Source of the DNA: Thermoanaerobaculia bacterium
Lineage (GTDB): Bacteria; Acidobacteriota; Thermoanaerobaculia; Gp7-AA8
DNA length: 64,000 nt
Assembly: GCA_034664845.1 (NCBI GenBank)
Contig: JAXDGW010000027.1
Span: 1,687-65,686 of the forward strand
Reading direction: 5' to 3'
The notes beneath the pieces were generated by a model. It was not told the origin of the DNA. It saw nothing but the letters and a program-made list of their open reading frames with translations, and did no database searches. Position numbers and translations under genes: made by a program. This document shows positions 6,513 to 62,462 of the stretch, piece after piece (position 1 is the first letter of the stretch; the number at the start of each line of letters is the position of its first letter).

Positions 6513-6610
6513 TGGCGGAGGCGCGTCGGAATCGAACCGACCCTTCGACGCTTCCGCGCCGAAACAACGGTTTTGAAGACCGCGGGAGCCACCAGACCCC
6601 ATTCGCCTCC
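6513..6610 (-). tRNA. selC: tRNA-Sec (anticodon UCA), 98 nt
   Basis: Reverse complement is GGAGGCGAAUGGGGUCUGGUGGCUCCCGCGGUCUUCAAAACCGUUGUUUCGGCGCGGAAGCGUCGAAGGGUCGGUUCGAUUCCGACGCGCCUCCGCCA. It has an encoded 3' CCA and a 7-8 bp acceptor stem. The D-stem is 6 bp with a 4-nt loop. The anticodon loop CUUCAAA gives U33 plus anticodon UCA. The variable arm is long (about 22 nt) and the T-arm is GTCGG/TTCGATT/CCGAC. Confidence 0.8.
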
Positions 6611-6641
6611 ACAATGGAAGGAACGGGACGATAACACGCTG

Positions 6642-7118
6642 TCACGCCGTCATGCGGCGCCAAAAAAACCGACGGATCAGCGCGTCGAGCGAGAACAAAC
6701 CCGGGCCGAAGGCGAGGATCAGCAGGGAGACGAGCAGATAAAGGAACGGCGCGGCGCTCGTGAACGCTTCCTGATCCTTGAAGAACCCCACCAGCGCTTC
6801 GTGATCGGCGGTCAGGTAGGCGACGAAGAAGTTGATCGTCAGCGGAATCGCGATCAGGCGCGCGGCCAGGCCGAGGAGGAGGAGAAGGCCCCCGACGCAC
6901 TCGAGCGTAGCGACGAAGTGGGCGTTCGCAGCCGGCATCGGGATGTGCAGATGCGTGAGGAAGTCGGTGAACCGGTCGATGTTCTCCAGCTTCCCTTTCC
7001 CGGTCTGAAAAAGCTGCCAGCCGAACATCACGCGGAGGATCAGCAGGAGTGGATCGCGCAGCTTGTCGAATCCGCGCGACATGACCGCGTCGTACCACCG
7101 GACCAGCTTGTCGATCAT
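6642..7118 (-). CDS. DoxX-family membrane protein (BufD-like position in the RiPP operon), 158 aa
   Basis: DoxX-like 4-TM topology; co-oriented with the operon, 9 bp downstream of the DUF2063 gene. Confidence 0.8.
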   Translation of the reverse strand: MIDKLVRWYDAVMSRGFDKLRDPLLLILRVMFGWQLFQTGKGKLENIDRFTDFLTHLHIPMPAANAHFVATLECVGGLLLLLGLAARLIAIPLTINFFVAYLTADHEALVGFFKDQEAFTSAAPFLYLLVSLLILAFGPGLFSLDALIRRFFWRRMTA

Positions 7119-20653: not shown

Positions 20654-21556
20654 TCAGGCGCGGCACGGCGGCGCGGCAAGCCACGTCGTCTGATCGAATC
20701 GTGTTGCGCCGGCGCTGCCGCTCCAGCGCCATGCTTTGCCGTCGGAGGTTTCGATCTTGAGGTCGATCGGCGTGCCGGCCTCAATCGCCTGCGGCGTCTC
20801 CAACGGTAGAAACGCGTGGCTCCAACTGGTGTCCGGCTTCTCGTTCGAGAGGACAACATCCTCGGCCAGCGTGGCGCGGAACCATCCGGCAAATCCGTGC
20901 AGGAGTCCCGATCGCGCCGCCTCGAAATGCACCGCGCCGTTGACATCAACGCTCTCCACGCTCGCCATCTCACACGAAATGATGCGCTCCGGTGCCGCCA
21001 GAAACGCGCTCGTTTCGACGTTGGCCACGTAGATCGCGTTCGACGCAAACGTCGCCAGCGGCGAGAGATCGAATCCGTATGGCTTTCGCTGCCACCACGA
21101 CACGTGACGGTCGAATAGCACCGGCAGATCGACCGGAACGACGAAGAGCTCGACGCGCTGCGGAATGATTGTCGCGCCGGGCCGCAGCAGACGCGTGCGG
21201 GCATCGATGACGCTGCTGAGGATTCGCTCTTCGAATCCGAACGCGCCCATCGTCTCGGTCACGAGCAGATCGGCCGGCTCCGGAAGCTCGATGTTCGTGG
21301 AGCGGTCGTGGATGACGGTCATACGATCGCCAAATCCGAGGTGCTTCGTCAGGAACATGGCCAGATCGGCGCTGTGCTGATCCTCGACCGCGAACACGCG
21401 CCGCGCGCCGGCCTCGCACGCGAGAAATCCGAGAATGCCCGAGCCAGTGCCGAGGTCGAGGACGACGCTGTCCGGGGTGACGACACGGCGGAGCGCATCC
21501 CGATAGGCGTTGACCCGGACTTTGTCGAGCAGCAGCGTCCGATGAACTTCGAGCAT
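20654..21556 (-). CDS. class I SAM-dependent methyltransferase, protein arginine N-methyltransferase (PRMT)-like, 300 aa
   Basis: PRMT-like motif I region (AYRDAL…VLDLGTGSGILGFLACEAGARRVFAVE) and post-I acidic residue. Confidence 0.65.
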   Translation of the reverse strand: MLEVHRTLLLDKVRVNAYRDALRRVVTPDSVVLDLGTGSGILGFLACEAGARRVFAVEDQHSADLAMFLTKHLGFGDRMTVIHDRSTNIELPEPADLLVTETMGAFGFEERILSSVIDARTRLLRPGATIIPQRVELFVVPVDLPVLFDRHVSWWQRKPYGFDLSPLATFASNAIYVANVETSAFLAAPERIISCEMASVESVDVNGAVHFEAARSGLLHGFAGWFRATLAEDVVLSNEKPDTSWSHAFLPLETPQAIEAGTPIDLKIETSDGKAWRWSGSAGATRFDQTTWLAAPPCRA

Positions 21557-21927: not shown

Positions 21928-22911
21928 CTATTGCGCGACGACCATCAACCAGATTCCTGCGCCGGGTTTGCCGGACAGTTCGACCTGGAGACGATTCTCA
22001 GACTCGACCTGGACCGGAATGTTGATGACACGAACCTTTGCATTGAAGTCAGACGGGCGCGCTACTTCCACGCCATTGAGAGTCACATGCGCGCTGCTGA
22101 CCGAACCGCCCGGCGACGTCCCGTTGATGATGCGCAAGGTCTTCCGCCCCGGTGCTGAAGCGAAGCTGCTAACTGTCTTTGCCGGGCCGGAAGTACGGCG
22201 GTAGAAAGCCTGCGCATACGCAAACGCGCTTGTGGTGCGAGCGAGCTGTCCGCCTGTAAGCGCATAGACGAGAATGTCGCCATTCGGCGTGATTCTGCCG
22301 CTGTCGTCGCGGTGTACACCCGGAAACGCCAGCAGCGCCAGACGTCCGCTGCCATCCAGGTCCACCGCCGCGACCTGGCTCAACAACGACACTCGCAGCT
22401 TGCGGGCGGCTGCTGTTGGCGAAATGAGTGACAACTGCCCATTACGCCATGCGAAAACCCAGGAGTCAGGGATCAGATATCCATGGCCGCTGGTGAGCCG
22501 CGCGATGATCTCCGGCGCTCCATCGCCGTCGAGATCGATCAGTTCGAGCTCCCCCCTGAACCCTTTGAGAAACGGCATATCCGGATGAGAAAGAACTCTC
22601 CCGCTGCGATCAAGTACGCTGATACCTGCTCGGGTTCCGTTCGTGTACAACGCAACGATAAGTGGCTGACCATTGCGATTCAGATCACCCGCCACGAATG
22701 TTGAGAATCGCGACGGCGCCTCGGGGTCGCGCGACGCAAACAGGTCCGCAGGATAGGCGTTGTCGACGAGTTGCTCGTCGGACACCTGCGCCCACGCCGA
22801 AACGCTGGACAGCGCAAGAACAACCAGGAACGTAAAAGTGCGTATGCGGAAGGCTCGGTCTCCTAGGGAACACCGCGAATGCACGCGGCGCGCTCCACAA
22901 AAACGCTGCAA
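21928..22911 (-). CDS. secreted FG-GAP/VCBS-like repeat protein, 327 aa
   Basis: Signal peptide; DLDGDGAPEI / DLDGSGRLAL Ca-binding-loop-like repeats. Confidence 0.5.
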   Translation of the reverse strand: MQRFCGARRVHSRCSLGDRAFRIRTFTFLVVLALSSVSAWAQVSDEQLVDNAYPADLFASRDPEAPSRFSTFVAGDLNRNGQPLIVALYTNGTRAGISVLDRSGRVLSHPDMPFLKGFRGELELIDLDGDGAPEIIARLTSGHGYLIPDSWVFAWRNGQLSLISPTAAARKLRVSLLSQVAAVDLDGSGRLALLAFPGVHRDDSGRITPNGDILVYALTGGQLARTTSAFAYAQAFYRRTSGPAKTVSSFASAPGRKTLRIINGTSPGGSVSSAHVTLNGVEVARPSDFNAKVRVINIPVQVESENRLQVELSGKPGAGIWLMVVAQ

Positions 22912-23036
22912 GCGCGATCAAAGCAACTAATCATTGCACACCATCCCGGAAATCATTGATGTGGGCGGCCTTTACAGATGCCAGTGTCTGTATACGTGCG
23001 ATTGCTCCGCGTGTCATTGAGCATCCGCTTGCGCCA

Positions 23037-23964
23037 TCACGTGCGCAGGCGCAGGAGCGCCGCTATCGCCGCGGCGAGCGCGAGCAACGCCAGAACCAGC
23101 GGCGAGAGCGCCGGAATCGCCTGGACATCGGCACCGACCACGGCGATGCCGGATATTGTCCCGGTTCCAACGTCGAACGGGCCCGCGGCAATCACGTCGT
23201 TCTGAAGGTCGAACTTGGCAGCCCCACCGAGGAAGGAGACCCAGACGAAGTTGGGGGAGACGTCGCGTCCAAACGGGACGGCATGTGTTGCATAGTGCCG
23301 AAGGATCGTGCCGTCCGTTCCGACGCGGTACATGTCGGCGAAGAACGTACTCGCCAGGAGCGTCCCATCGGAAAGAACGAGAAGGGTACGCCCAGTGTCG
23401 CCGAGTGGAGCCGATAACGGTGTCAGCATCGTATTGTGGCAAACATCGAATCTGCCAATCTGATTCATGGAGAGCGTGAAGTGGTAAAGGGTGCATTGGT
23501 CCAGACCCAGATCGGCCCGTTGAGAAGAGCTGCCAAGGGAGCTCACGCCCTGTTGAGTCCCCTGACTGTTGAACTTCAGAACGTGTCCGCCGCCGGTGGT
23601 AGCAAACAGATTGCCGGAACGATCGAAGGCGAGGGTTTTCGGGCTGTATGGAGATGTAGGATCGGGGTAAGCATGCTACCGTCGCTCGCAAAGCGAAAGA
23701 CGCTCGCTCCAGCTGCCCGTAGAGAATGCCACTCGGACCGAATTTCAGGTCCGTCGTATAGTCGTCTCCGGAATAGAACTCGTAAATCAGCGACCCGTTC
23801 GGCGCAAACTGGCGGATGGTGCCGATGAAGACAGGGAAATTGCCTACAAGAGTATACGACACGCCGCCAACGATCACGTCACCGGGATGAAACACCGCAA
23901 ATGCGGACCCCTCGCTACACAAAGACACCGTCAGGGCGAGCAAAATGATTGCTCTGACTTTCAT
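23037..23964 (-). pseudogene. frameshifted paralog of the 313-aa beta-propeller partner protein (second copy of the tandem duplication)
   Basis: The N-terminus (MKVRAIILLALTVSLCSEGSAFAVFHPGDVIV…GILYGQ) and the C-terminus (…GIAVVGADVQAIPALSPLVLALLALAAAIAALLRLRT) align to gene 24389-25330, but the reading frame changes around 23690-23720. Confidence 0.55.
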
Positions 23965-24392
23965 TGCACACCATCCCGGAGATCGTTGATATGAGCGGCC
24001 TTTACAATAGGGCCGGCATCGATATACGTGGCGGCACGCAGCCCCAGAGCGGTACGCGCGGAATTGAGCGCCGAGCGAAGCTCCGAAATGTGTACCGAGC
24101 GAATGAGGAACCCACTGGCCAGTCCTGGGTCTGTGAACGAAAATGGCGTGGTGAAGCCCGCTGCCATTCGTACTGAATTCACCACGGTCCGGAGTTCGGT
24201 GATATCGACCGCTGCGATGGTGTCTCCCACCGTTACATGATTCCCTGCGCCCGAGTGTGTGTAGTGGTTCGTCGTGGCAAGATCGGGCGCCGACCACGCC
24301 GATGCGAACGGCGGCCGGACCGCGCGCACCTGGTAGACATAGGCAGTATTTCGTGTCAGCGAAAACCCACTGTTCAGCCCACGCTTTTTCAC
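23961..24392 (-). pseudogene. duplicated fragment of the S8 peptidase C-terminal domain (143 aa; GTG start overlapping the upstream stop)
   Basis: …NTAYVYQVRAVRPPFASAWSAPDLATT…VKAAHINDLRDGVQ is colinear with the last ~135 aa of the 1080-aa subtilase. Confidence 0.55.
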
Positions 24393-25330
24393 GTGCGCAG
24401 CCGCAAGACTGCCGATATCGCCAAGGCGACCGAAAGGATAAGCTGGAGGAGCGGGGCGAAAGCCGGAATTGATTGCACATCGGCACCGACGATGGCGATA
24501 CCGGTGATTGAGCCGGTCCCTACGTCGAAAGGCCCTGCGGTGATCACATCGCCCGTTAGGTCGAACTTCGCAAATTTCCCAAGGACCATGACCCAGACAA
24601 AATTGGGGTTAGTGTCGCGAGCATACGCTGAGGCGTGGGTTGAATAATGGCGAAGCACGGCGCCGTCTAAGCCGATGCGATACATATCCGACTGGTTTGT
24701 GCTCGCGAGAAGAGTTCCGTCGGCGAGGACGAGAAGCGTCCGGTCAAGGTTCACGGTGGTTTGCAGCGGCGACGATAACGTACCACTGCAGGTATCAAAT
24801 CTTCCGATCCTTGACGCGGGCGATGTCAAGAAAAAGAGTGTGCACTGATCCAGGCCCAGATCGGCCCATGAGGACACGCCAGTTCCCAATGATGAAACTC
24901 CCGCTGGATTGCCAGCACTGTCAAACTTGAGCACGGCTCCGTCCGGTGAAGTGGCAAAAAGACGACCGGATCGCGCGAATGCCAGCGAGTGCATGAAGTA
25001 GCCGGTCGAGGCAGGCTGAAGCGGCGGGAGCGTGCTACCGTTATCCGCGAACCGAAGAACGATCGTTCCGGCGGCGCCGTGAAGAATACCTTGGGGGCTG
25101 AACTTGAGGTCGTCGGCGCCAATATTGTCGCCCGAGAATAGTTCCTCTATCAGTGTGCCGTCCGGGCCAAACCGCCGAATCTTGCCGACAAACGCTAACG
25201 GGTTTGGCTCATTCACTGGTCCCTCCACGGTGCTAACGATGATCTCTCCGGGATGGAACGTTGCGAACGCCGCCGGCGTGCCCCATAACGATGCGCTAAG
25301 AATGACCGCCGCAATCACCCGGCCCCTCAT
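24389..25330 (-). CDS. secreted beta-propeller (NHL/SMP-30-like) protein with a C-terminal hydrophobic anchor ending LRLRT, 313 aa
   Basis: Signal peptide; repeated GxxLxFxxxG blade-like motifs. C-terminus IPAFAPLLQLILSVALAISAVLRLRT. ATGA overlap with the subtilase stop. Confidence 0.6.
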   Translation of the reverse strand: MRGRVIAAVILSASLWGTPAAFATFHPGEIIVSTVEGPVNEPNPLAFVGKIRRFGPDGTLIEELFSGDNIGADDLKFSPQGILHGAAGTIVLRFADNGSTLPPLQPASTGYFMHSLAFARSGRLFATSPDGAVLKFDSAGNPAGVSSLGTGVSSWADLGLDQCTLFFLTSPASRIGRFDTCSGTLSSPLQTTVNLDRTLLVLADGTLLASTNQSDMYRIGLDGAVLRHYSTHASAYARDTNPNFVWVMVLGKFAKFDLTGDVITAGPFDVGTGSITGIAIVGADVQSIPAFAPLLQLILSVALAISAVLRLRT

Positions 25331-28300
25331 TGAACACCATCCCGAAGATCGTTGATGTGTACCGCCTTTACGGTCGTGGAGGAATGAATCAATTGGGAGT
25401 CGGTATACACGGCCGCTGCCAGACCAAGCGAGTTCCGAGCCGCGTCAAGGGCGGCGCGGAGTTGAGAAATATCCTCAGCGTGAATGACCGCTCCAGCGAG
25501 TGATCCGTTCGGATTGCTTGGCAGAATAGGTACGTACTGGGGCAGGCTGGCTGCCGCACGCACAGAATTAACGACGGCTCGTAACTCGACTATGTCTGTC
25601 GCCGCCATAACGCTACCAGCGACGATATGATGATTCGCATCAGCATGCGTGTAGGCGCTTGTCGTGGCAAGATCGGGCTCCGACCACGCGGATGCGAACG
25701 GCGGGCGGGTCGCGCGCACCTGATAGACGTATGCGGTATTGGGTGTCAGCAGAGCCCCGCCATCCGTCAAGCTGTCGAAGGAAGTGGCCGTCACATGCAC
25801 CGGCGTACCGTACGTGCTTTCCCCGTTCAGGCCACTCTTCCGGCGGATGTCGTAGCCCAGCGGCGCCCCGCTGACCGGTGACCACGAAAACGTGATTCTG
25901 GTCGATGAGGTGCTATCAAGAGGGCTTATCACGGGAGTACCGAGCGGAAGAGAGGTAGAAGCTGCATCATAGGCATTGTACGCCACGAGAGCAAAAGTCT
26001 GGGCGGAATTGGCCATACCGCTCGCGTTGGTGACGTACACGGTGAATGTCGTCCCGGCAGGAGCAAAGAATCGAGCAATTTCGGCGTTGTTGAGCACGTC
26101 GGCTGGAAGGTTTGCATTGTTGCATCCGTAGTCGAAGGATACCTCTCCTTGTGTCGTGTTCTCGATGACCAACTTGTTACCCACGAAACGTTTGCCACAG
26201 GGAGTGCCGAGATCTACACGCAGATCAAGATCATTCACCAACGGCGTGGTGGTGGTCTGTCCGGGACTAAGCACAGCGGGTGGATCGGACCAAACGAGGG
26301 CAATCTTCACCGGGAGGGTGGCATCATGAACGGTTAGCGTCCTGGTCCACTGGGCTGTGGGCGTGAGAAGCGAAGACGGCGGTTCATTCACAAAATAGCG
26401 GAAGGGATATGGCGACAACACATCCTCAAGACTGATTCTGCCGAAGCCCTGCTGATTGTTTGGGAATACTCCTATCGGTTGTGATTCCACGGTGTATTCA
26501 GGTTCCGCGAATGGTGCATAAAGAAGATTCTTTTCGGCGCCGCCGGCCATGCTGCGCGCCCCAGCGATTAGCATCGCTTTGGTCAGCGATGGGCGAGAAG
26601 AGTACGGGATGCAAGGCGACACTGAGGAGCCGTGACATCCGGGATTTACGGCCTCTTCGTAGAAACGGCGGGCGAGCAGGGCAGCACCCGCAGCGACCGG
26701 GGCGGCAAAGCTGGTGCCTCCGCCTGCGACGTAGTCAGAGCCGGCCACCAGAGGTGAAGAATTGGATGGTGTTGGCCTGCATTGAGCGCCGTCGTCATGA
26801 GGGTATGACTCAGCCTGGGATCGAGTGGAGACGATGTTCTCGGCAGGCGCAAAGAGGTCGGGTTTGTACCAGCCCGTGGTCAGTGTTCCCCTCATGGAGT
26901 TTGCCGCGATGTTCTCGAAGCTGTTCTGGCCGCAAAAGTGACACTGCCATTGCTCGAGGGAACTTCTAGGTATTTCCGCTGAGCCTACGGATATGACGTT
27001 CTTTGCAGTCCCTGGCGGGAGTGTGAACTTACGGGTGCTTGCACACGGGTCGGTGTGGTGTAAACGATCTATCTGGCCGATCTGATTGCCGGCTGACACC
27101 GTAAGTACGATAGGATCGATGCTGCTATTGAATAGTCCGTTATCCGCATCAATGACCGATTGGTCAAATTGCTGAGAAAGAACAGAATAGGTGCCTCCGT
27201 AGCAAGGCGAGGAGCCGTACTGGTTGTAAGAGTGATTCTGCACTCTCACATCATCTTGACCAGCGGGTTGGCTGGCGGCATCGTGCGCATATGCAAACGT
27301 ACCTGTTGGCGACGAGCTTCTCGAGATCTTGGTGACGTAGACGCCTGCACTCGGTGCGACACCGGTGGCGTAAAAATAGCCTCCTGGGTAGTCGGTCGCC
27401 GTTGCATTCGTAGTGTCGCCCGTGGCGATCCCGGCGATCATGGTGCCGTGCGAACTCGTATCGACAAGGTCGGCACCCGGGCTGTCGAAGTTGGTACCGA
27501 AGCGAACCTTTGGCCCTGGCAGCGCCGGATTATGACGGCCATTGGTCGCTCCGTCGTCCAAGCCGCTCGCGTCGGCTACACCCACCCAGAAATGATCATC
27601 CTGCAAATGCGTGCAGAAGGGACAGATGCCGTCCAGCCAGGCCTTGTAGGAGCCGGGATTCGCCGGCGCCCGCGCCTCAGGTCCACCGCTGACATTCCTC
27701 GTTAGCGAGAGGGCAACTCGTTCGTCGGACGGCTGCAGGATCGGCGCTTCCACCACGCAGAACACCAGCGGGCTTGCCACGATATCGGGGAGATCGCGCG
27801 CAGCGAATGACGCCTGCAGGTCGAGCTGGCCCGCCGAGGCGCGCCGCGTGGTGACCTTGCTGCTGGCCCGGGCGCCCAGGGAGTCCATGAATGCGTCCAC
27901 GCCGGGGGCGTCGATGAGTTGCACGATGAAATCGCGGATGTCGCCCTCCTTGCCCGGCTGCGGATGAACCTTCAGTCCCACATGCAGCATGTCTACCAGT
28001 TGGACGAACGGGAGCTTTTCGGCGGTCCGCATCACCTCCGGCGTGCCAGCGACGATGTAGGCGTTATAGGGGATGTATTGCACGAGCTTCACGCCGAGGG
28101 ACTCGACCTGTTTTTCCCACTCGGGCTTGATCGGTCCGGCGAATTGCAGGATGTAGGCGCCCCACTCCCCCTTTTTGTACGGTGCGCTTCGCTGCAGTCC
28201 GGGAAGCGATCCTTCCACTCCTCGCCGGGCATCGATCGTTCCCTCGGGGAGGAAGATTTTGTCGAAGTCGTCGCGGGGACGGATTTCTACGCGCAGTTCT

Positions 28301-28569
28301 GCGGCCCGATCGGAAAGACCCTTCAACGTGTCGGTCAGAAAGTAGGCGACCGTCTGCGTCTCGTACTCCTGCACGATCTCGCCCCCGCCCTTCTGAACGA
28401 CCTCCGCCGCAGCGCTGGCATTCGGCAGCATCATCAGGTTCTTGCTGATGACCACTTTTGTATGACCCTCGCGTGCGCTGAAGGCAGCGACCGGGCTGGC
28501 CGCGCCGGCAACGATTGCCACGGCGAGCAGTAAAAAGAGATGGCGATTGAAGCATCGTCTAAGAGTCAT
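25327..28569 (-). CDS. secreted subtilisin-like serine peptidase (S8) with propeptide and C-terminal Fn3-like domains, 1080 aa
   Basis: His motif DTSSHGTMIAGIATG, Ser motif GGTSFAAPVAAGAALL, signal peptide, Fn3-like ITFSWSPVSGAPLGYDIRR. Confidence 0.85.
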   Translation of the reverse strand: MTLRRCFNRHLFLLLAVAIVAGAASPVAAFSAREGHTKVVISKNLMMLPNASAAAEVVQKGGGEIVQEYETQTVAYFLTDTLKGLSDRAAELRVEIRPRDDFDKIFLPEGTIDARRGVEGSLPGLQRSAPYKKGEWGAYILQFAGPIKPEWEKQVESLGVKLVQYIPYNAYIVAGTPEVMRTAEKLPFVQLVDMLHVGLKVHPQPGKEGDIRDFIVQLIDAPGVDAFMDSLGARASSKVTTRRASAGQLDLQASFAARDLPDIVASPLVFCVVEAPILQPSDERVALSLTRNVSGGPEARAPANPGSYKAWLDGICPFCTHLQDDHFWVGVADASGLDDGATNGRHNPALPGPKVRFGTNFDSPGADLVDTSSHGTMIAGIATGDTTNATATDYPGGYFYATGVAPSAGVYVTKISRSSSPTGTFAYAHDAASQPAGQDDVRVQNHSYNQYGSSPCYGGTYSVLSQQFDQSVIDADNGLFNSSIDPIVLTVSAGNQIGQIDRLHHTDPCASTRKFTLPPGTAKNVISVGSAEIPRSSLEQWQCHFCGQNSFENIAANSMRGTLTTGWYKPDLFAPAENIVSTRSQAESYPHDDGAQCRPTPSNSSPLVAGSDYVAGGGTSFAAPVAAGAALLARRFYEEAVNPGCHGSSVSPCIPYSSRPSLTKAMLIAGARSMAGGAEKNLLYAPFAEPEYTVESQPIGVFPNNQQGFGRISLEDVLSPYPFRYFVNEPPSSLLTPTAQWTRTLTVHDATLPVKIALVWSDPPAVLSPGQTTTTPLVNDLDLRVDLGTPCGKRFVGNKLVIENTTQGEVSFDYGCNNANLPADVLNNAEIARFFAPAGTTFTVYVTNASGMANSAQTFALVAYNAYDAASTSLPLGTPVISPLDSTSSTRITFSWSPVSGAPLGYDIRRKSGLNGESTYGTPVHVTATSFDSLTDGGALLTPNTAYVYQVRATRPPFASAWSEPDLATTSAYTHADANHHIVAGSVMAATDIVELRAVVNSVRAAASLPQYVPILPSNPNGSLAGAVIHAEDISQLRAALDAARNSLGLAAAVYTDSQLIHSSTTVKAVHINDLRDGVQ

Positions 28570-29540: not shown

Positions 29541-30110
29541 ATGACTTCCCTTGCCTCAGATCGTTTGGCGGACGCCGGCAGCGTGGCCGTCGAAGCGCTG
29601 GCCAATAGCGTTGACTGCGACGCCGCAGCGCTTCGCTTTGACGCCTTGTACGCCGCGTATAGGCCCCTGCTCCGAAAGATTGCGATCCGAAAGTTTGGCG
29701 TCGCGGTTTCCGATGCCGAGGACCTGGTGCAAGACGTCTTCGCTACGTACCTTGCAAATCCCTCGAACGTCCGGGAGCTGCATCCTTATCTCATCGGGGC
29801 CATCTGCAACGCCTCCCGGCAATTCCGGCGGCGAAACGAATCCTCCCCGTTTTGTCCCAGCAGTGCGTGCGGCGCCACACCGGATGACGAGCTGGTCGAC
29901 GGCGTCGTACGGAATGTGGTGATTGCAGCCACGCTCTCTCGCCTCGGCGCGCGCTGCCGTGAGACGCTGGAGCGTTTCTATCTGAACGGGGAAACGGCCG
30001 TCTCCATCGCCGAAAGCCGCGACACCTCGGCGGGATATATGTGGCGTCTTCTCAACTACTGCCGCAATCGCGCGCAAGCGATTTACCGGCAGATGAGCGC
30101 AGGCTCATGA
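29541..30110 (+). CDS. ECF-type RNA polymerase sigma-70 family factor, 189 aa
   Basis: Region 2 (…DAEDLVQDVFATYL…) and region 4 HTH (…ETAVSIAESRDTSAGYMWRLLNYCRNRAQ). Confidence 0.8.
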   Translation: MTSLASDRLADAGSVAVEALANSVDCDAAALRFDALYAAYRPLLRKIAIRKFGVAVSDAEDLVQDVFATYLANPSNVRELHPYLIGAICNASRQFRRRNESSPFCPSSACGATPDDELVDGVVRNVVIAATLSRLGARCRETLERFYLNGETAVSIAESRDTSAGYMWRLLNYCRNRAQAIYRQMSAGS

Positions 30111-31471
30111 CCGTGAAGCACGTCGCCGAAACGGTCTTGGGGTTATATGCACTGGAGCCGGCACTGGTGCCGAGCCGTGCCGATATTGAAGCCCACCTCG
30201 CAGCCTGTGACGACTGTCGCTCGGCGCTTGCCACCATCAGGACGTTCGACGCCGCGCTCGCTGAGGTGGACGCATGGCCTGCGAATTCGACCGACGCGGA
30301 TCATTCGGCATCGGTCGAGCAATTGCGCGCGTTCGCAGCTCGTTCCGCCGAGGAAGATCGTGAGGCGCTGCGACTTCTGGCTGAATATGAGGAGACGGAT
30401 GCCGCGCCCCGGTTTGTGTGGGCCGACATCCCGAGCAAGGCGGAGTACCGGACCGGCGGCGTGGCACGTCTGCTCTGCAAGCGGGCGAACGGAATGTGTA
30501 CGCGCAAACCGCTTTATGCGCTCGCTCTCGCCGAGGCTGCTGTGCGGATCAGTGCGAACCTCCCCGATGCGAGTTATCCGCGGGCGACCATCCACGAGCT
30601 CCGAGGCGAGGCGTGGAAGGAGCAGGCGAATGCGCTGGTCAGTCTGGGGCGATTTGATGAAGCGCTCGACGCCCTTGCGCACGCGGAAGCCGAATACCGC
30701 CAGCTTCCGCATGAGGGCCTCGGCTTGGTCGCCGTCACGTTTGTCCGCGCGACCATCCTGTACGAACAGGAGCATTTGGAGTCCGCGGATCAGCTTGCGC
30801 GCGACTCCGCAGACGCAGCGCTGCATCTGGGGTCAACTGACCGCTGCATGCGAGCTCTGCACCTCCAAGGGCAGATCCGGCATCGACGCGGCGACCTACT
30901 GGGCGCAGTCCACCTCTTCGAAAGAGTCTTGCACTACGGAGAGGGGATCGATGACCACCGATGGATTGCGCTTGAAACGCGTGCCCTCGGCGTTTGTAAC
31001 ATCGAATTGATGAATGCTGCGGAGGCGAGCAGCTATCTCTCCACATCCCTCCGACTGTGTACCGGATTGGATTCTGCTGTGGAAGTGACGCTCACACAGT
31101 GGGCGATCGCTCGTCTCACGTTCTTGCAAGGCAATCCGGAGGACGCAATTCGCCGACTCCGCAGCGTCGTCGGAGAGCTGACTCGCCAAGGCATGCTGAC
31201 TGATGGGGCCATCGCGTCGGTCCATCTCGCCGAAATCCTGCACGCAGTCGATCGGACACGTGAGATCCCCAAACTACTTGCTGGAGTGGTGCAGACCTTC
31301 GTTGCTGCAGGGATGCTGAACGGCGCCCTCTCCGCCCTCGCCTACCTGAAAGAGGCGGCGACGGCAGGCCCGATTACACCGGCGATGTTCTCGTACGTTC
31401 GGCAGTTCATTGCGCGCGCCGAGCGCCAGCCTGCTCTTCTTTTCGCGCCACCACCGAAATCGCCAGTGTAA
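30107..31471 (+). CDS. anti-sigma factor candidate: N-terminal zinc-finger (HLAACDDC) plus TPR-like repeat domain, ~454 aa
   Basis: ATGA overlap with the sigma gene. HxxxCxxC ZAS-like motif; helical-repeat-rich remainder. Confidence 0.55.
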   Translation: MTVKHVAETVLGLYALEPALVPSRADIEAHLAACDDCRSALATIRTFDAALAEVDAWPANSTDADHSASVEQLRAFAARSAEEDREALRLLAEYEETDAAPRFVWADIPSKAEYRTGGVARLLCKRANGMCTRKPLYALALAEAAVRISANLPDASYPRATIHELRGEAWKEQANALVSLGRFDEALDALAHAEAEYRQLPHEGLGLVAVTFVRATILYEQEHLESADQLARDSADAALHLGSTDRCMRALHLQGQIRHRRGDLLGAVHLFERVLHYGEGIDDHRWIALETRALGVCNIELMNAAEASSYLSTSLRLCTGLDSAVEVTLTQWAIARLTFLQGNPEDAIRRLRSVVGELTRQGMLTDGAIASVHLAEILHAVDRTREIPKLLAGVVQTFVAAGMLNGALSALAYLKEAATAGPITPAMFSYVRQFIARAERQPALLFAPPPKSPV

Positions 31472-46959: not shown

Positions 46960-47531
46960 AACCGATCCATCTCAATCTCGCCGCGCGGCCGTTCCGCGAC
47001 TACCGTCCGGTCTACGCCGCCGTCATCGTCATGGCACTGCTGACCGCGTTTCTTGCGCTCAACAACGTCGATACGTTGCTCAAATACCAAACGGAGACGA
47101 AGACAACGCGCGCCGACATCGCCAGGCTCGAAGAACAGACGGCGGACGAGCAGCGCAACGCGGACACGCTGGCGCAACGTCTTCGCGGAGTCGACCTCAA
47201 GCTTCTCGCCTCGCAGACCGAATTCGCGAACGCGCAACTCGCTGAGCGCGCCTTCTCCTGGAGCGAGCTCCTCGACCGCCTCGAGCGCGTCCTGCCCGCC
47301 AACGTCCGGCTGCAATCGATCAGTCCGACCTTCGACAAAGACGGTCTCGTTCACCTCGGCATGACCTGCATTGGCAAAACCGGTGACGGCCTTTCCGCAA
47401 CCCTCAACAACTTCAACGGCGATCCGCACTTCGCCAACGCCTTTCCCCAGAGTGACGCGCAGCAACAGGGCGAATACCGCTTTACGCTCGGTGTCGATTA
47501 CCGGCCGTCGATCGCCAGGAGAGTCGAATGA
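46956..47531 (+). CDS. pilN: PilN, 191 aa
   Basis: Typical N-terminus HLNLAARPFRDYR plus TM plus coiled coil; ATGA-type overlaps with neighbours. Confidence 0.75.
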   Translation: MKPIHLNLAARPFRDYRPVYAAVIVMALLTAFLALNNVDTLLKYQTETKTTRADIARLEEQTADEQRNADTLAQRLRGVDLKLLASQTEFANAQLAERAFSWSELLDRLERVLPANVRLQSISPTFDKDGLVHLGMTCIGKTGDGLSATLNNFNGDPHFANAFPQSDAQQQGEYRFTLGVDYRPSIARRVE

Positions 47532-48124
47532 TCTGGCGCGAGAAGCGAATTCTGTTGATCGTTCTCGGCGTCCTTCTTCTCGCCAACACGATCTTTTTCT
47601 TCACCTACCGCGTGCAGTACGTGAACCGGCTGCAGGACCTCGATCTGAAGCAGGAACAGACCAAAGCCCGCCTGGAGCAGGCACACCGCGCGCGAATCAC
47701 TGCCGAACAGCAGCTTGCCGCGTACAAGAAAGTGCAGAGCGATCTGCAGGTCCTCTACACGAAAAACTGGGCGACACCGATGGAGCGTCTGACGGCGCTG
47801 ATCGACGAGGTCAAGAAGCTCGCCGCCGCCAGTCACCTCGAGCCGCCCAGCTATGCGTTTTCGAGCTCGGAAACGAAAAACCCAACCCGAGGATCGGTGG
47901 GGGCGACAGCGGTGGGCATTGCGTTTACGGTTCAGGGAACATACGAAGAGGCACGGCGGCTCATCAACCTGCTGGAGCTCTCCGAACAGTTCGTGATCAT
48001 TGACGGGATCAGTCTGGCCGGCAGTGGCGCCGCTACCGATAAGACTCTGACACTCAATATTCGACTCAAGACGTTGTTCCGCGACACGCGCACCGCTGCG
48101 CCCACCGCGAACAAGCAGCTGTGA
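47528..48124 (+). CDS. pilO: PilO, 198 aa
   Basis: N-terminal TM, coiled-coil, C-terminal ferredoxin-like pattern; position. Confidence 0.7.
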   Translation: MIWREKRILLIVLGVLLLANTIFFFTYRVQYVNRLQDLDLKQEQTKARLEQAHRARITAEQQLAAYKKVQSDLQVLYTKNWATPMERLTALIDEVKKLAAASHLEPPSYAFSSSETKNPTRGSVGATAVGIAFTVQGTYEEARRLINLLELSEQFVIIDGISLAGSGAATDKTLTLNIRLKTLFRDTRTAAPTANKQL

Positions 48125-48810
48125 TGGACTGGATGAACTGGAAAACCTGGACAGTAATCGGCGCGATTCTCATCGCGATCTTTGCGATCTACGGCTACGC
48201 CTCGAATTCGAGCAGTGGCGATGTACCTCTGCCCGCCGCGACGGGACCGCGTACAGCGTCAAAGGCCGCGTCTCGCATTCCGGTATCTGCAAATACGCCC
48301 GGCGTTCCAACGCTTCATACGGAGTGGCTCGAGGCGCCGAGCGGCAGCTACAAGAGCGCGCGCAACCTCTTCGCATACAAAGAGCCACCGCCGCCACCAC
48401 CACCCCCGCCACCTCCTCCTGTAGTCGCTCCCCCGGATCAGGATCATGACGGCATCCCTGATTTTCGCGATAACTGTCCTGCGGCATACAACCCCGATCA
48501 AAAGGACACGGATCACAATGGCAAGGGCGACACATGCGACGCCGAATGGCAGGCCTACAATGCGGCGCACCCGCCTCCGCCGCCGGCTCCGGTTCCGCCG
48601 CCATTCACATACAAATACATCGGCACGTTCGGCCCCGCTTCGAATCCGATCGCAACATTCACAGGCAACGGCGAGATCATCAACGTGCGCGTCAATGAAG
48701 CGTTCGGCGGGGGGAAGTTCATCCTCCGCAGCATCGGGATCGAATCAGTCGAGATCGGCTACACCGGTTTCCCGCCGGACAAGAAAGACCGCGTGCCGCT
48801 CGGTCAGTGA
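48121..48810 (+). CDS. pilP: PilP-like lipoprotein with an inserted thrombospondin type-3 Ca-binding repeat and poly-Pro tracts, 229 aa
   Basis: TSP3 consensus DQDHDGIPDFRDNCPAAYNPDQKDTDHNGKGDTCD flanked by P12 and PPPPPAPVPPP. C-terminal beta domain …NGEIINVRVNEAFGGGKFILRSIGIESVEI. Confidence 0.6.
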   Translation: MMDWMNWKTWTVIGAILIAIFAIYGYASNSSSGDVPLPAATGPRTASKAASRIPVSANTPGVPTLHTEWLEAPSGSYKSARNLFAYKEPPPPPPPPPPPPVVAPPDQDHDGIPDFRDNCPAAYNPDQKDTDHNGKGDTCDAEWQAYNAAHPPPPPAPVPPPFTYKYIGTFGPASNPIATFTGNGEIINVRVNEAFGGGKFILRSIGIESVEIGYTGFPPDKKDRVPLGQ

Positions 48811-48849
48811 CCTTTGAATAGCGTTACCGTCAGAACATCAGAATAAGGA

Positions 48850-49008
48850 GGGAGTTGGAAGAGACAAGAGATTAGAGACTAGAGATCAGAGATCAGAAAG
48901 ACAATCGAAGTTTCTGACCACCGATCAGGAATCACAGATCTTTCAAAGAAGATCGAGCTTCCCCTGATCTCTAATCACTGATCTCTGATCTCTGAGCATC
49001 CAACTCCC
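48850..49008. repeat. simple-sequence hairpin element between pilP and pilQ (gagacaagagattagagactagagatcagagatcag … ctgatctctaatcactgatctctgatctctgag)
   Basis: Read in sequence. Outer arms ggagttgga / tccaactcc also pair. Confidence 0.8.
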
Positions 49009-49017
49009 GGAAATCAA

Positions 49018-51438
49018 ATGAATAAGACCAGACTCGGAATTACAGCATTGGCGTTGTCGCTGACCGTGCTTTCCTGCACGAGCTACAATGCCTTCCAGAA
49101 GGCGAAGCACGCCGAGACGACGAAGAATTGGGACTCGGCCGTGGTCGAGTACCAGAAAGCGCTCGACGTCGATCCGGGAAACACGCTCTACCAGATCAAC
49201 CTGTCGCGCGCCAAGCTCGAAGCCTCGCGCGTCCATTTCGAGAAAGGCAAAGCGTTGCGCGTCTCCGCGCTCAACACGCGTGGCGCGGAGCTCGTCCGCC
49301 TCATGAAGCTTGCCGCCACGGAGCTCGAGCTGACCATCAGGCTCGATCCGACCAACCAGTTTGCCGCCAGCGAATACGCCAAGACCACGGCCACTCTCCA
49401 GGAAATCGCGCAGGCCGGCCTGCCCCCATCCATCGACGACATCAAGCGCCGCGCCAAAGCGAACATTACAAAGTCGGCGCCGCCACAGCTCAGCCCCACA
49501 TCCGATCAGCCCATCTCCCTCTCCTTCCCACAGGAACGTCCGATCAAGGAAATCTACAAAGCCCTCGGAAACGCGTTCGGAATCAACATTCTTTTCGATC
49601 AGGCAGTCAAAGACGACCGCATCGCCATCGAGCTCAAGGACGTCACCGCGCAGCAGGCGCTCGAGCGCGTCATGCAGGCCGCCAATCATTTCTACAAAGC
49701 GCTCGACGAGCACACCATCATCGTCGTTCCTGACAACCCCCAGGCCCGCCGCGATTACGAAGATCTCGTCATCCGCACGTTCTACCTGTCGAACGGCGAC
49801 GCCGAGCAGGTCACCAACGTCGTCCGGACGATGATCGAAGCGCGCAACGTCTTCCCGCTCAAAGCGCTCAACGCCATCACCATCCGCGATACCGCCGATA
49901 AGGTGCGCATCGCCGAGAAGATCATCGAGGCCAATGACAAGGCGAAAGCCGAAGTCGTCGTCGACGTCGAGCTGCTCCAGATCGATCTCGATAAGCAGCA
50001 CGACATCGGCGCCGTCGTCGCCGGTCTCGGCGGCACTCTTTCCGCCACACTGCCGACTGACAAGGACGGCAAAGCTCTACCCGCCAATCTCGACGCGCTA
50101 CGCGGCATCCGCAGCCCCGACCTCACCTTCACGATTCCCTCCGTGAACTACAACTTCATCAAAACCGTCGGAAACACCCAGACGCTCGCCAATCCGGAGC
50201 TGCGCATTTCCGAAGGGGAAAAGGCGACGCTGCATATCGGACAGCGCGTTCCGGTTCCTGTGACGACGTTCACGACCGGCGTGCAGAACGGAACGCTGGG
50301 AAGTCTGCCGGCGACGTCCTTCCAATATCAGGACATCGGCATCAAGGTCTCCATCGAGCCGCGGGTGCATCACAACAACGAAGTCACGCTCAAGCTGACG
50401 GTCGAGGTTTCCGACATCGCGGCCGCCGCCACGACTTCCGATCTGCCGTCGTTCAACACGCGCACCATCGAAGCGACGATCCGGCTGAAAGATGGTGAGA
50501 CGAACTTCCTCGCCGGCCTCATTCAGGAGACGGAAGGCACCACCAGCCAGCGCACGCCGTTCCTCGGCGACATCCCCATCCTCGGCCGGCTCTTCACGAA
50601 AGACAAATCGTCGCGGCATCGCACCGATCTGATGCTCACGATGACGCCGCACATCATCCGTAAACCGGATATCACCGAGGATGATCTGGCGCCGATGTGG
50701 GTCGGAACGCAGAGCAACTTGAGCTTCCGCGGACTTTCGCCGCGTCTCGAATCGCAGTCCACGGTCGATCCCTTCTCGCCGCCGCCGGGCGCACAGCAGT
50801 TCCGCACCGGCACCGTCGATCCGGACGGCAATCCCATCCCGGCCACCAACATGGTCGTACCGCAGGGCACCGCTCCCACCGATCCGTTCCGCGCCACGCC
50901 GAACGCGCCGCCGCCGAATCCGCCTGCGAATCCGCAGCCGGAGAGCAAGCTTTCCCTTCCTTCCAACGGCACCGCGGTCGCACTTTCCAACGCGAACAGC
51001 GGCGCGCTCAACGACAACAGCGGGCTCTCGCCGCGCATCCAGCCGCAGCCGATGCGTCTCGCGTTCAAGCCGGGCGAAGAGAAGATCTGGAACGTCGTCG
51101 GGATGGATCTCGACGGCCTGACGACGACGCAGCTCCTTCTTCACTACAACCCGCAGACGCTCGATGTCAGCGAGATCTCTTTCGGGCCTGCCCTGAATAT
51201 CGATCTGAAGACGCCGCCCGTCGCGACGATCGACCGCGAGCACGGAACCATCCGCATCACATCGTCGAACGGAAAACCGTTGCAGTTCAACGCGGGAGGC
51301 GGCGAGATCGCAGCGCTCCGCGTTCGCGGCGGTGCACCCGGCGAGACCTACCTCGTGCTCGATAATCCCAACCTGACCAACGGCAGCGGCACAGTCGTCG
51401 CCGCATCCGTCTCAGGAGGCCACGCAAAGGTCGACTGA
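49018..51438 (+). CDS. pilQ: PilQ secretin with N-terminal TPR-like region and Pro-rich C-terminal extension, 806 aa
   Basis: Secretin domain motifs (…VPVPVTT…, GETNFLAGLIQETEG, TPFLGDIPILGRLF…TDLMLTMTPHII). Confidence 0.85.
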   Translation: MNKTRLGITALALSLTVLSCTSYNAFQKAKHAETTKNWDSAVVEYQKALDVDPGNTLYQINLSRAKLEASRVHFEKGKALRVSALNTRGAELVRLMKLAATELELTIRLDPTNQFAASEYAKTTATLQEIAQAGLPPSIDDIKRRAKANITKSAPPQLSPTSDQPISLSFPQERPIKEIYKALGNAFGINILFDQAVKDDRIAIELKDVTAQQALERVMQAANHFYKALDEHTIIVVPDNPQARRDYEDLVIRTFYLSNGDAEQVTNVVRTMIEARNVFPLKALNAITIRDTADKVRIAEKIIEANDKAKAEVVVDVELLQIDLDKQHDIGAVVAGLGGTLSATLPTDKDGKALPANLDALRGIRSPDLTFTIPSVNYNFIKTVGNTQTLANPELRISEGEKATLHIGQRVPVPVTTFTTGVQNGTLGSLPATSFQYQDIGIKVSIEPRVHHNNEVTLKLTVEVSDIAAAATTSDLPSFNTRTIEATIRLKDGETNFLAGLIQETEGTTSQRTPFLGDIPILGRLFTKDKSSRHRTDLMLTMTPHIIRKPDITEDDLAPMWVGTQSNLSFRGLSPRLESQSTVDPFSPPPGAQQFRTGTVDPDGNPIPATNMVVPQGTAPTDPFRATPNAPPPNPPANPQPESKLSLPSNGTAVALSNANSGALNDNSGLSPRIQPQPMRLAFKPGEEKIWNVVGMDLDGLTTTQLLLHYNPQTLDVSEISFGPALNIDLKTPPVATIDREHGTIRITSSNGKPLQFNAGGGEIAALRVRGGAPGETYLVLDNPNLTNGSGTVVAASVSGGHAKVD

Positions 51439-60090: not shown

Positions 60091-60312
60091 ATGAACTCCC
60101 CCAAGAACCACCACGCCCCAACAGCGGGCAAGCCTACCCTCCTCGCCATCATCGCGATCCTGTTTCTGGCTGCCTTTGGCTCGGCCGCAGTCGTCGGAGA
60201 GCGGCCGGTGTCGTCGCCTGTCTACGCACCGGTTACCGGTCTTAGCTCCAGCCCGATCGCGATCGCGTCGAACGGAGACCGAGGACGTGCAGCGGGAGCG
60301 GGAGCGTCATGA
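60091..60312 (+). pseudogene. truncated N-terminal fragment (73 aa) of the downstream secreted repeat-protein family
   Basis: …ERPVSSPVYAPVTGLSSSPIAIASNGD aligns to the first repeat of the next two paralogs (ERPVSTPVYASRTAFSAAAIASNGD). ATGA junction with the next gene. Confidence 0.4.
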
Positions 60313-62462
60313 AACGCAGCCTCGTCGTCCTGACCTTCCTCATGAGCGTTGCGGCTGCCGCCAGCGCGCAGATCACGTCGGAGCGGCCGGTGTCAACGCC
60401 CGTTTACGCGTCACGAACCGCATTCTCCGCAGCGGCAATCGCATCGAACGGCGATCAGTTCCTGGCCGCTTGGATCGACGAGGGCTATCCCTATGCCGTC
60501 CACGTGTCGCGGATCGACCGCGACGGTTCCGTGCTCGATCCGCTCGGCATCGTCATCGCTCCGCAATCCAACCACCCGGGTCCCGTGGGCGTGGCCTGGG
60601 ATGGCGAGGCATATGTCGTCGCATGGCCGGGGCCGAACGGCAACATGGCCGCGCGCATCGGATCCGATGGACGGATCGTCGAGCCGCCGAGCCGCCTCGC
60701 GTTAAGCGGAAACCTCCACGGCCAGAATGCGATCGCCGCGAACGGAAACGTAACCGTGATTGCGGCCGGCTTGAGCTACTTCGTTCTCGATCACGAGTTG
60801 CGCTCCGTCATCTCCGGCTCGCTGTCCAACGCATCCGTGTTCAAGACCGGCGCAGACGAATTCACGCTCATGGCACCGACTCGGATTCAGCGTCTCGATG
60901 CCGCAGGCCATTCTGTATCGATTGCTGTGCGGGACGGATTGGACGGAGACGCGATCAGTTGTCATGGCCAGAATTGCATCCGCGTCTCCTCAAATGCGGG
61001 CACGACGCATCTCACCGTGGCGCTGTACGACCCGATCTCACTCAAGAGCGGCACACCACTCGACCTGGCGATGACGCAGCGGCCGTTCGCGCTCGTCGCC
61101 ATCGACAGCGGCTATCTCCTCGCGACGAACGACGGCTCGATCCAGCGGTTCGACATCAGCGGCCATCCGAGCGGAGAGCCCACCTCACCATGCTGCCCGC
61201 CGGGCAGCGCCGTGGCTTCGGCATCCAATGGCCGGGAAGTCGTGGTTCTCCGTCAATCGTATGCGGCGCTCACCTACTCGATGGTCACATCGTCTTCGGA
61301 TGGCGCGCCGCAAACCCTGGCTCTCACCGCAAACGCGCAGCGATCCCCGGCGATCGCCCGCAGCGGATCGAATTACCTGGTTGCGTGGACCGAAGACGAC
61401 GGCGTTTACGCCGGCCTCTTGTCGATCGATGGAACGATCCTCGACGGCCGGGGAAGGCAACTTTGGCGCGGCGCGCCGGCCTCCCCCTTCGACAACCCGG
61501 CACCCTTGGCGTCCGTGGTTTTTGACGGCGCCTCATACCTCGTGGCCGTGTCGACGAACCCGTTCGATCCTCCTTACCCTTCTTTCGGGAAACGGCACAA
61601 CAGTACGATCACGATCGTACGCATCGATCCGGCCACCGGCGCGAACCTGGACTCGTGGACGATCTGCGGCAGCGACATGCACCTCGCCCGAAGCGGAACC
61701 TCCACCGTAGCGGTATGGGTCGATTGCGACGGCAGACTCGAGGCCGCCTTCCTGGCAGCAACCGGAGCTGTGTCGATCCCCATCACGCTGTCCGCCTTTC
61801 ACCCTCCCGGCTCCTCCTGGTTCCCCGCCAATCCGAATCTGGCCTGGAATGGAACGGAGTGGCTGCTCACCTGGGAAGAGCAAGCCTTTCTCTGTACTTA
61901 TTGTCCTGGCGAGGTGCAGCAGTTGACGGGCGCCATTTCGGCAATGCGTCTATCCGCCGCGCTGACGCCAATCGACACCAAGCCGATTGCCATCCAAACC
62001 GGCGACTACTACTACGCACCAACGTTGGTCTCATCGTCGCGTCTCGCCTCCGACGGCAATGACTTCCTCGTCGTATGGTCCGATCGGTTTACGGCCCTCG
62101 TCAGCTCGCAACGGATATCGGCCGCGGGAACACTGCTCGACGGGCGTCCCGTCGCCACCGGGAGGACAGACAGCCTCGTTTGGGACGGAGCCGCGTATTC
62201 AATGGCGCTGACCGTCCGCCCCTACGAGAGCGATCTCGCGCTTCTGCGGCTGACCGCCGCCGATCACGCTCTCGATTCGCTTGTCATCAGTACCACTTCC
62301 GATGAGGAGCACCGCGCCGCGCTCGTTCCGCTCGGTGGTGGAAAAGTCCTGGCAGCCTACTCACGCGTCGCACACGAGCCGCTCTATGCCGGCCTCGAGC
62401 GCGTATTCATCGCCGCGCCGCACCCTGCTCGCGTACGATCATCACGAACGGAGACTCCATGA
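60309..62462 (+). CDS. secreted repeat protein (about 50-aa [AS]xNGxxFLVAWxD…VYAxRIxxDGTxLD repeats, beta-propeller-like), 717 aa
   Basis: Signal peptide; at least 8 copies of the repeat are visible in translation. Confidence 0.6.
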   Translation: MKRSLVVLTFLMSVAAAASAQITSERPVSTPVYASRTAFSAAAIASNGDQFLAAWIDEGYPYAVHVSRIDRDGSVLDPLGIVIAPQSNHPGPVGVAWDGEAYVVAWPGPNGNMAARIGSDGRIVEPPSRLALSGNLHGQNAIAANGNVTVIAAGLSYFVLDHELRSVISGSLSNASVFKTGADEFTLMAPTRIQRLDAAGHSVSIAVRDGLDGDAISCHGQNCIRVSSNAGTTHLTVALYDPISLKSGTPLDLAMTQRPFALVAIDSGYLLATNDGSIQRFDISGHPSGEPTSPCCPPGSAVASASNGREVVVLRQSYAALTYSMVTSSSDGAPQTLALTANAQRSPAIARSGSNYLVAWTEDDGVYAGLLSIDGTILDGRGRQLWRGAPASPFDNPAPLASVVFDGASYLVAVSTNPFDPPYPSFGKRHNSTITIVRIDPATGANLDSWTICGSDMHLARSGTSTVAVWVDCDGRLEAAFLAATGAVSIPITLSAFHPPGSSWFPANPNLAWNGTEWLLTWEEQAFLCTYCPGEVQQLTGAISAMRLSAALTPIDTKPIAIQTGDYYYAPTLVSSSRLASDGNDFLVVWSDRFTALVSSQRISAAGTLLDGRPVATGRTDSLVWDGAAYSMALTVRPYESDLALLRLTAADHALDSLVISTTSDEEHRAALVPLGGGKVLAAYSRVAHEPLYAGLERVFIAAPHPARVRSSRTETP

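Follow-up and report, generated by a model that had tools for sequence, protein, structure and literature searches.

A probable exchange of C-terminal tail and beta-propeller partner at a subtilisin-family peptidase locus of a Thermoanaerobaculia bacterium

Subtilisin-family (S8) proteinases of the bacterial envelope include lactococcal PrtP, which is encoded next to an anchored helper, the lipoprotein PrtM, and the streptococcal C5a peptidase, which carries fibronectin type III (fn3) domains. PrtM is a lipoprotein of the peptidyl-prolyl isomerase type, not a propeller, and is needed in a fixed relation to the protease. Neither of these S8 loci is known for polymorphic tails or orphan fragments. 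Secreted enzymes can also be anchored to a cell-wall polymer by the SLH domain, in which three repeats form a pseudo-threefold helical bundle. Here we analyse 64,000 nucleotides (nt) of a Thermoanaerobaculia bacterium (Acidobacteriota; GenBank assembly GCA_034664845.1, contig JAXDGW010000027.1), referred to as the window and providing all coordinates given below, in which an S8 peptidase gene is followed by a beta-propeller gene and by further copies of the peptidase C-terminus and of the propeller gene. The layout resembles that of orphan cdiA-CT/cdiI and rhs-CT/rhsI fragments, which are devoid of initiation and secretion signals and resemble the C-termini of full-length proteins from other strains (Poole et al. 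2011, PMC3150448). In the window, a polymorphic tail and a coupled, membrane-anchored propeller probably constitute a module at the 3' end of a conserved S8 gene, and the orphan fragment with its broken partner is probably the displaced original of that module. Cassettes of an orphan C-terminus and a partner are taken as a hallmark of toxin and immunity systems; here they are found on a Sec-exported subtilase.

The genes of interest lie on the minus strand in the order S8 peptidase, partner A, a fragment of 143 amino acids (aa) and partner A'. The peptidase is an open reading frame (ORF) of 1080 aa (25327..28569) that matches Pfam Peptidase_S8 over aa 361-638 (E 3.9e-25) and retains an intact His motif (HGT at 374) and Ser motif (GTSFAAP at 618), which identify it as a subtilase. 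It further comprises a signal peptide, a long N-terminal region, an fn3 domain at about aa 851-970 with a weak Pfam fn3 match, and a tail of three helices (aa 971-1080). Partner A is an ORF of 313 aa (24389..25330) whose ATG overlaps the peptidase stop codon (ATGA, 25327-25330). The GTG of the orphan fragment (23961..24392) in turn overlaps the stop codon of partner A (GTGA, 24389-24392), and partner A' (23037..23964), a pseudogene recognised by homology to partner A in three frames, starts at a further ATGA (23961-23964); the 4-nt stop-start overlaps noted in the initial annotation are therefore present at all three junctions. Beyond these lies a third, heavily deleted unit (22869..22998), of which three pieces survive, with indels: ~70 nt from the 3' end of a tail (VKAAHINDFRDGVQ and its stop), an ATGA junction, and ~65 nt of signal-peptide sequence of the partner type. 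Its junction is 91% identical to that of unit 2 and 83% identical to that of unit 1. A possible handle remnant in this unit ('MTRGAIARIQTLA', ~22980-23017) was dropped, as its DNA alignment score of 20 compared with a maximum of 22 for shuffled sequence.

Homology between the units, which had been suggested from the sequence alone, holds up on alignment. In tblastn comparisons, the 143-aa ORF finds its counterpart in residues 936-1080 of the peptidase (E 4e-43, 57% identity), and the homology of partner A to 23040-23964 runs through three successive reading frames (combined E 1e-81); with E-values so far past the chance level, both matches are real. Where a single frameshift had been reported in A', there are two, near 23716 and near 23657-23666. 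The units are arranged head to tail with a period of ~1370 nt, are ~65% identical overall at the DNA level, and share a 46-nt junction repeat (family D2) that is present in three copies in the window. This geometry is what a plain ancient tandem duplication would leave, in which units arise by unequal crossing-over, diverge in place and the second copy decays. Tandem copies of the partner gene also occur at two related loci, with copies 79% identical at L008 and five or more copies at L007. The initial annotation had adopted that reading; its repeated unit of C-terminus and partner, its overlaps and its one decayed partner stand, but its units are not each other's closest relatives.

The evidence on relationships comes from a paralogous locus, L001, located on a different contig of the same metagenome-assembled genome (MAG). 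In the 163 codons that lead up to the fn3 end, the window and L001 peptidases are 80% identical in nt (synonymous divergence, dS, 0.66; non-synonymous divergence, dN, 0.14), whereas over the tail (the last ~102 codons) they are 57% identical, with synonymous sites saturated (pS 0.79) and a dN of 0.40. Such an abrupt C-terminal switch between close relatives, here from 80% to 57% at the border of fn3 and tail, is the kind used to recognise polymorphic toxins. The fragment behaves in the opposite manner, with 81% nt identity to the L001 tail (dS 0.72, dN 0.10) against 57% to the tail of the adjacent peptidase, where synonymous sites are saturated; in amino acids the corresponding identities are 82-84% and 56-57%. 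The partners follow the same pattern, with a dS of 0.74 for A' and L001, 1.48 for A and L001, and at least 1.39 for A' and A; A' is 62% identical to the L001 partner, 65% to the protein P0003 and 56% to partner A. By these distances, the L001 tail and partner have their same-age counterpart in the fragment and A'.

The switch coincides with a short conserved segment, termed the handle, which encodes the last two fn3 strands (NTAYVYQVRATRPPFASAWSEPDLATT, aa 944-970; 25660..25740, minus strand). This is the best-conserved DNA between peptidase and fragment (27 codons, 88% nt identity, dS 0.42; detected as repeat D1, 105 nt at 85%) and stands at the mosaic breakpoint. DNA identity between peptidase and fragment is 84-93% over the ~80 nt that encode these strands (NTAYVYQVRA.RPPFASAWS.PDLATT) and 40-55% thereafter. 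The resident tail that follows in the peptidase (25330..25659, minus strand) is foreign relative to L001. Sequence comparison shows the window peptidase as a mosaic, with a body co-linear with that of L001, whereas its final ~110 residues and partner A belong to another, much older lineage.

As the two units are not mutually closest, unit 2 is not simply a copy of unit 1 that drifted in place. Under a plain tandem duplication it is difficult to see why unit 2 should be nearer to another locus (tail 81% versus 57% nt; partner dS 0.74 versus 1.39), or why the similarity of the peptidase to L001 should drop sharply at the unit boundary while that of the fragment does not. A duplication that predated the split of the two loci is possible, yet L001 would then require a later recombination between repeats. 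We consider a simple tandem origin improbable, although of the alternatives it retains the best standing. Given their L001-like distances, the fragment and A' look instead like the original module of the locus.

In the explanation we favour, a foreign module of tail and partner would have recombined into the gene at the conserved fn3 end and pushed the original tail and partner downstream, where they would have lost the promoter-proximal body and its secretion signal; A' would then have begun to decay only lately, through its two frameshifts. An equivalent reading is that L001 was made by recombination between two copies of the handle, which would have fused the downstream module to the peptidase body. 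The third, mostly deleted unit suggests that there may have been more than one such event. The orphan fragment would most likely be a silent leftover that could recombine back into the main gene. At L001 itself (6600-6800), the peptidase gene is frameshifted just after the catalytic Ser motif (GGGTSFAAPVAAGAAV, then a change of frame) and its partner is intact; this reflects either the decay of a second copy or a sequencing error.

The composition of the orphan is consistent with this history. Of the fn3 domain it keeps just the last two strands (handle copy 24270-24350), which a complete tail follows; it has no signal peptide and starts with a GTG without an obvious Shine-Dalgarno sequence; it is unlikely to work as a protein on its own. 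The ratio of non-synonymous to synonymous divergence (omega) for the fragment and the L001 tail is 0.135, and comparisons among intact peptidases give 0.13-0.19. A' can be read as residues 1-82 from 23964-23719, ~20 residues from 23716-23657 and the remainder from 23666-23040, so that both frameshifts fall within about 60 nt; neither site has a homopolymer run of 5 or more, and the homologous segments hold no in-frame stops. Together, the low omega and the lack of in-frame stops suggest that protein-level constraint acted on the displaced module until not long ago; its decay looks recent. The initial annotation had argued that the copies were no assembly artefact, and an independent Logan assembly of SRR24887407 agrees, being 100% identical over 4012 nt with both frameshifts included; on this comparison, made at the level of assemblies, the frameshifts are unlikely to come from the assembler.

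The tail itself belongs to a widespread but unannotated class of C-terminal domain. In the AlphaFold model of peptidase residues 880-1080 (mean pLDDT 86.2), fn3 is followed by three helices with long loops between them, and these helices are three 'KAxHIxELRxA' repeats. The three-helix part gave no match in Pfam, NCBIfam, PHROGs or PDB sequences, and Foldseek searches of the tail region against PDB and BFVD returned fn3 matches only. An exhaustive profile search collected, at E<=1e-3, 11,544 representative proteins, of which 1361 also pass E<=1e-30, each representing a cluster at 50% identity, with the lower-scoring set including matches to fn3 strands alone. Among the whole-tail matches listed, the match ends no more than one residue from the C-terminus, except in P0213, where it is N-terminal; the shortest of these proteins has about 135 aa and the longest over 4,100 aa. 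Domains upstream of the tail, in a sample of ten, included S8, M12 reprolysin-like, Laminin_G_3, DUF1565 and Ig-like. Because such diverse secreted proteins end in it, the tail is a common terminal module, and a role in attachment or sorting looks more plausible for it than one as a toxin. With fn3 and three KAxHIxELR repeats, it is very common, and anchoring, sorting and secretion are candidate roles.

Two observations on this domain stand apart from the history of the locus. The last ~135 residues of the peptidase (25330-25740; proteins P0081-P0217) correspond as a whole to an unannotated, extreme C-terminal domain that is found behind diverse N-terminal parts. In other phyla, many ORFs of 120-240 aa that start near 'TAYxYxVRA' first hinted at standalone tail proteins; this reading was dropped for L009, L010 and L017, which are pieces of frameshift-broken genes in long-read assemblies. 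The tail ORF at L011 is isolated, and these cases gave no evidence for orphans elsewhere.

The partner represents a very small family. Partner A has the same sequence as a hypothetical protein from a MAG of Thermoanaerobaculia (Acidobacteriota). It is modelled by AlphaFold2 as a beta-propeller (mean pLDDT 88.8) with an N-terminal signal peptide and, at its C-terminus, the sequence 'IPAFAPL', a transmembrane (TM) helix at 292-312 and RLRT. The family keeps two cysteines (DQCTLY...C) and a C-terminal 'IPALSP' followed by a hydrophobic helix and RLR. Its structural neighbours were generic WD40, designer and BtuG propellers only, with no specific identity. Among 5.8 billion clustered proteins there are 15 clear homologues, two further relatives occur in JGI metagenome contigs, and none was found in 185,579 GTDB species representatives. 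The members are mutually about 45-65% identical in a star-like pattern. Against the IPTL-CTERM model TIGR04174, A' scores 14.3 bits where the cut-off is 20.5, and partner A has no match; weak hits to the ScyF NHL PEP-CTERM model come from three members of the partner family (best E 1.5e-7), partner A not among them. No exosortase turned up among the selected window ORFs that were scanned, a scan that included no search aimed at exosortases. Separately, partner A is weakly similar to 60176-62462 on the plus strand (tblastn, 24-28% identity, E 0.014-0.16), where overlapping ORFs of 449 and 717 aa without a Pfam match may encode a distant propeller relative.

We propose that the tail serves in surface attachment or recognition and has no catalytic role, and that the propeller would be its membrane- or surface-anchored companion, perhaps as a docking, maturation or self-protection factor. 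The overlapping stop and start codons could ensure that the propeller is made in a fixed ratio to the peptidase. Our scan for promoters and terminators returned fewer sites than shuffled sequences and was uninformative.

Related loci provide context for the association of the two genes. The partner lies directly 3' of a peptidase of the same S8-fn3-tail type in six of six cases (the window, L001, L003, L004, L005/L006 and L016), counting distinct loci for which upstream sequence is available. This is contextual support for the co-expression of partner and peptidase that the initial annotation had put forward. Of five loci with gene calls, four have the 4-nt overlap between peptidase and partner (the window, L001, L003 and L005); the start called in L004 leaves a gap of 11 nt, and in L016 ~6 nt separate the end of the tail match (2549) from the start of the partner match (2555). 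Arrays with truncated C-termini are present in the window (143 aa and the stub), in L005/L006 (281 aa), in L007 (two) and in L015, in each of which tail remnants of differing length precede extra partner genes. The 281-aa fragment of L005 is 77% identical to the peptidase tail of L003 and only ~50% identical to that of its own neighbouring peptidase, and the divergent block between L003 and L005 takes in the fn3 domain.

At least two types of tail can be distinguished. Type II comprises the window fragment, L001 and L015, with L004, L005 and L016 as looser members, and type I the L003 peptidase and the L005 fragment. The resident tail of the window peptidase has a central loop like that of type I and is mixed overall. 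All conserved motifs are common to the types, which differ mainly in their loops. In L007 (1-5800) at least six consecutive genes belong to the partner family. Frameshifts split two of these, and each of the first two full partner copies stands behind a tail remnant (52 aa and 15 aa).

Several points weigh against a history of module exchange. Identity matrices for the N-terminal half, the C-terminal half and the whole partner show no grouping by tail type, so that a cognate specificity between tail and partner has no support from co-variation. The 5' ends of orphans fall at about peptidase residues 817, 936, 1029 and 1061, and no single fixed recombination motif is apparent; 'NTAYVYQVRA...PDLATT' lies at the breakpoint in the window and L001, but other orphans start elsewhere. 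The handle is conserved in every comparison (74-88% nt), and its excess within the window rests on 27 codons. The data do not separate an insertion here from a deletion-fusion in L001, and duplication or insertion of a whole unit followed by a 5' deletion could give the same picture. Finally, all the sequences are metagenomic and the L001 peptidase is itself frameshifted. We nevertheless regard an exchangeable tail and partner, with the fragment and A' as the displaced original, as the likely account of the locus.

A more specific interpretation treats the peptidase as an antibacterial effector whose tail sets target or immunity specificity, the propellers as envelope immunity proteins whose extra copies would make up an immunity repertoire, and the downstream tails as silent cassettes. 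The layout is like that of orphan cdiA-CT/cdiI and rhs-CT/rhsI arrays (PMC3150448), the tail switches abruptly between close relatives, the partners are fast-evolving, star-like and found in arrays, and the arrays of L003 and L005 lie directly upstream of an Rhs locus with an orphan of its own. However, the tail does not look toxin-like: it is a small repeat domain of three helices, found at the end of more than 1000 clusters of diverse secreted proteins, and its types share their conserved motifs and differ mainly in loops. Partner similarity does not follow tail type, the orphan partner in the window is broken, which would be odd for a protective gene, and no dedicated delivery system is adjacent. 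On this balance an effector and immunity function is doubtful. In the Rhs loci themselves, a Rhs/YD-repeat gene (DUF6531, RHS_repeat) directly follows the peptidase and partner array (L005 5873-11954; L003 9983-11727), a downstream orphan Rhs fragment of 292 aa is 80% identical to part of the main Rhs gene, and the L003 Rhs gene is split or truncated.

A broader and equally speculative proposal is that arrays of exchangeable tail and propeller represent an unrecognised polymorphic system of self/non-self secreted proteases in Acidobacteriota, whose silent cassettes would be swapped at the fn3 end, whether the pairs act as effector and immunity or as dock and anchor. We found no description in the literature of the same orphan layout of tail and partner for a protease. 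Either C-terminal exchange is a general means of diversifying surface enzymes, or these loci reflect a new protease-based form of competition in soil Acidobacteriota.

An artefact of assembly or sequencing, through collapsed or chimeric strains or false frameshifts, is very improbable: the source is a MAG and another of its loci is also frameshifted, but over 4 kb the assemblies from two different programs do not differ at a single base, like arrays occur in unrelated samples, the frameshift sites lack homopolymers, and units only ~65% identical make mis-joined strain variants impossible. A diversity-generating retroelement or invertible cassette was considered and rejected, as the repeats are direct and highly diverged (~65%; tail 40-55%); the neighbours that were scanned included no reverse transcriptase or recombinase.

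The genes that flank the locus include one candidate regulator. Divergent from the peptidase, on the plus strand (29541..31471), are a sigma-70 region-2 factor resembling those of extracytoplasmic function (29541-30110) and an overlapping TPR protein (30041-31471); the pair adjoins the peptidase in the window, L001 and L003 and is a candidate regulator of the operon. On the other side, the third remnant is abutted by a gene for an FG-GAP/VCBS-repeat secreted protein (longest ORF 327 aa, 21928..22911, minus strand), which is not a member of the partner family. This gene begins inside the third-unit remnant, and its true start is uncertain since gene callers give 285, 318 or 327 aa. A homologue of PRMT5/PRMT-like arginine methyltransferases, a family uncommon in bacteria, is encoded at 20654-21556 on the minus strand (PRMT_C, PRMT5_C). 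Further away, at 36211-51438 on the plus strand, is a cluster of type II secretion (T2SS) or type IV pilus-like genes, which encodes a 1028-aa protein whose N-terminus carries a prepilin methylation motif, an 848-aa protein that matches nothing in Pfam, the F protein of a T2SS, a T2SS E ATPase that has an MshEN domain, and a secretin.

Compared with described systems, the individual parts of the locus have only partial counterparts. The tail recalls the SLH domain, by analogy only, in its three short repeats, its Arg-containing helix motif and its position at the end of unrelated secreted enzymes, but it has no Pfam SLH match, is extreme C-terminal and always follows fn3, and the structural comparison is dominated by fn3. 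The partner resembles proteins of the PEP-CTERM/IPTL-CTERM kind in its Pro-containing motif (IPALSP), TM helix and RLR cluster, with scores that are below the curated cut-off. As among the envelope S8 proteinases named above (PrtP/PrtM, C5a peptidase), a large multi-domain S8 protein with fn3-type domains has a neighbouring gene for a membrane-anchored extracytoplasmic protein.

The systems of contact-dependent inhibition (CDI) and Rhs offer the nearest parallel, with clear differences in the components. The body here is a Sec-exported S8 peptidase and not a two-partner secretion, type VI secretion or YD-repeat protein; the C-terminus is a common, non-enzymatic-looking three-helix domain; the downstream protein is an exported, anchored beta-propeller of 310 aa and not a small immunity protein; and no fixed motif like VENN (or PxxxxDPxGL) is apparent, nor does the partner track the tail type. 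What the loci have in common with those systems is their organization: a large secreted protein with a conserved body, a C-terminus that switches abruptly and a linked downstream gene, followed by 5'-truncated C-terminal fragments, devoid of secretion and initiation signals, that each have a copy of the downstream gene and resemble the C-termini of other loci. The likeness extends to the origin proposed here for the displaced module.

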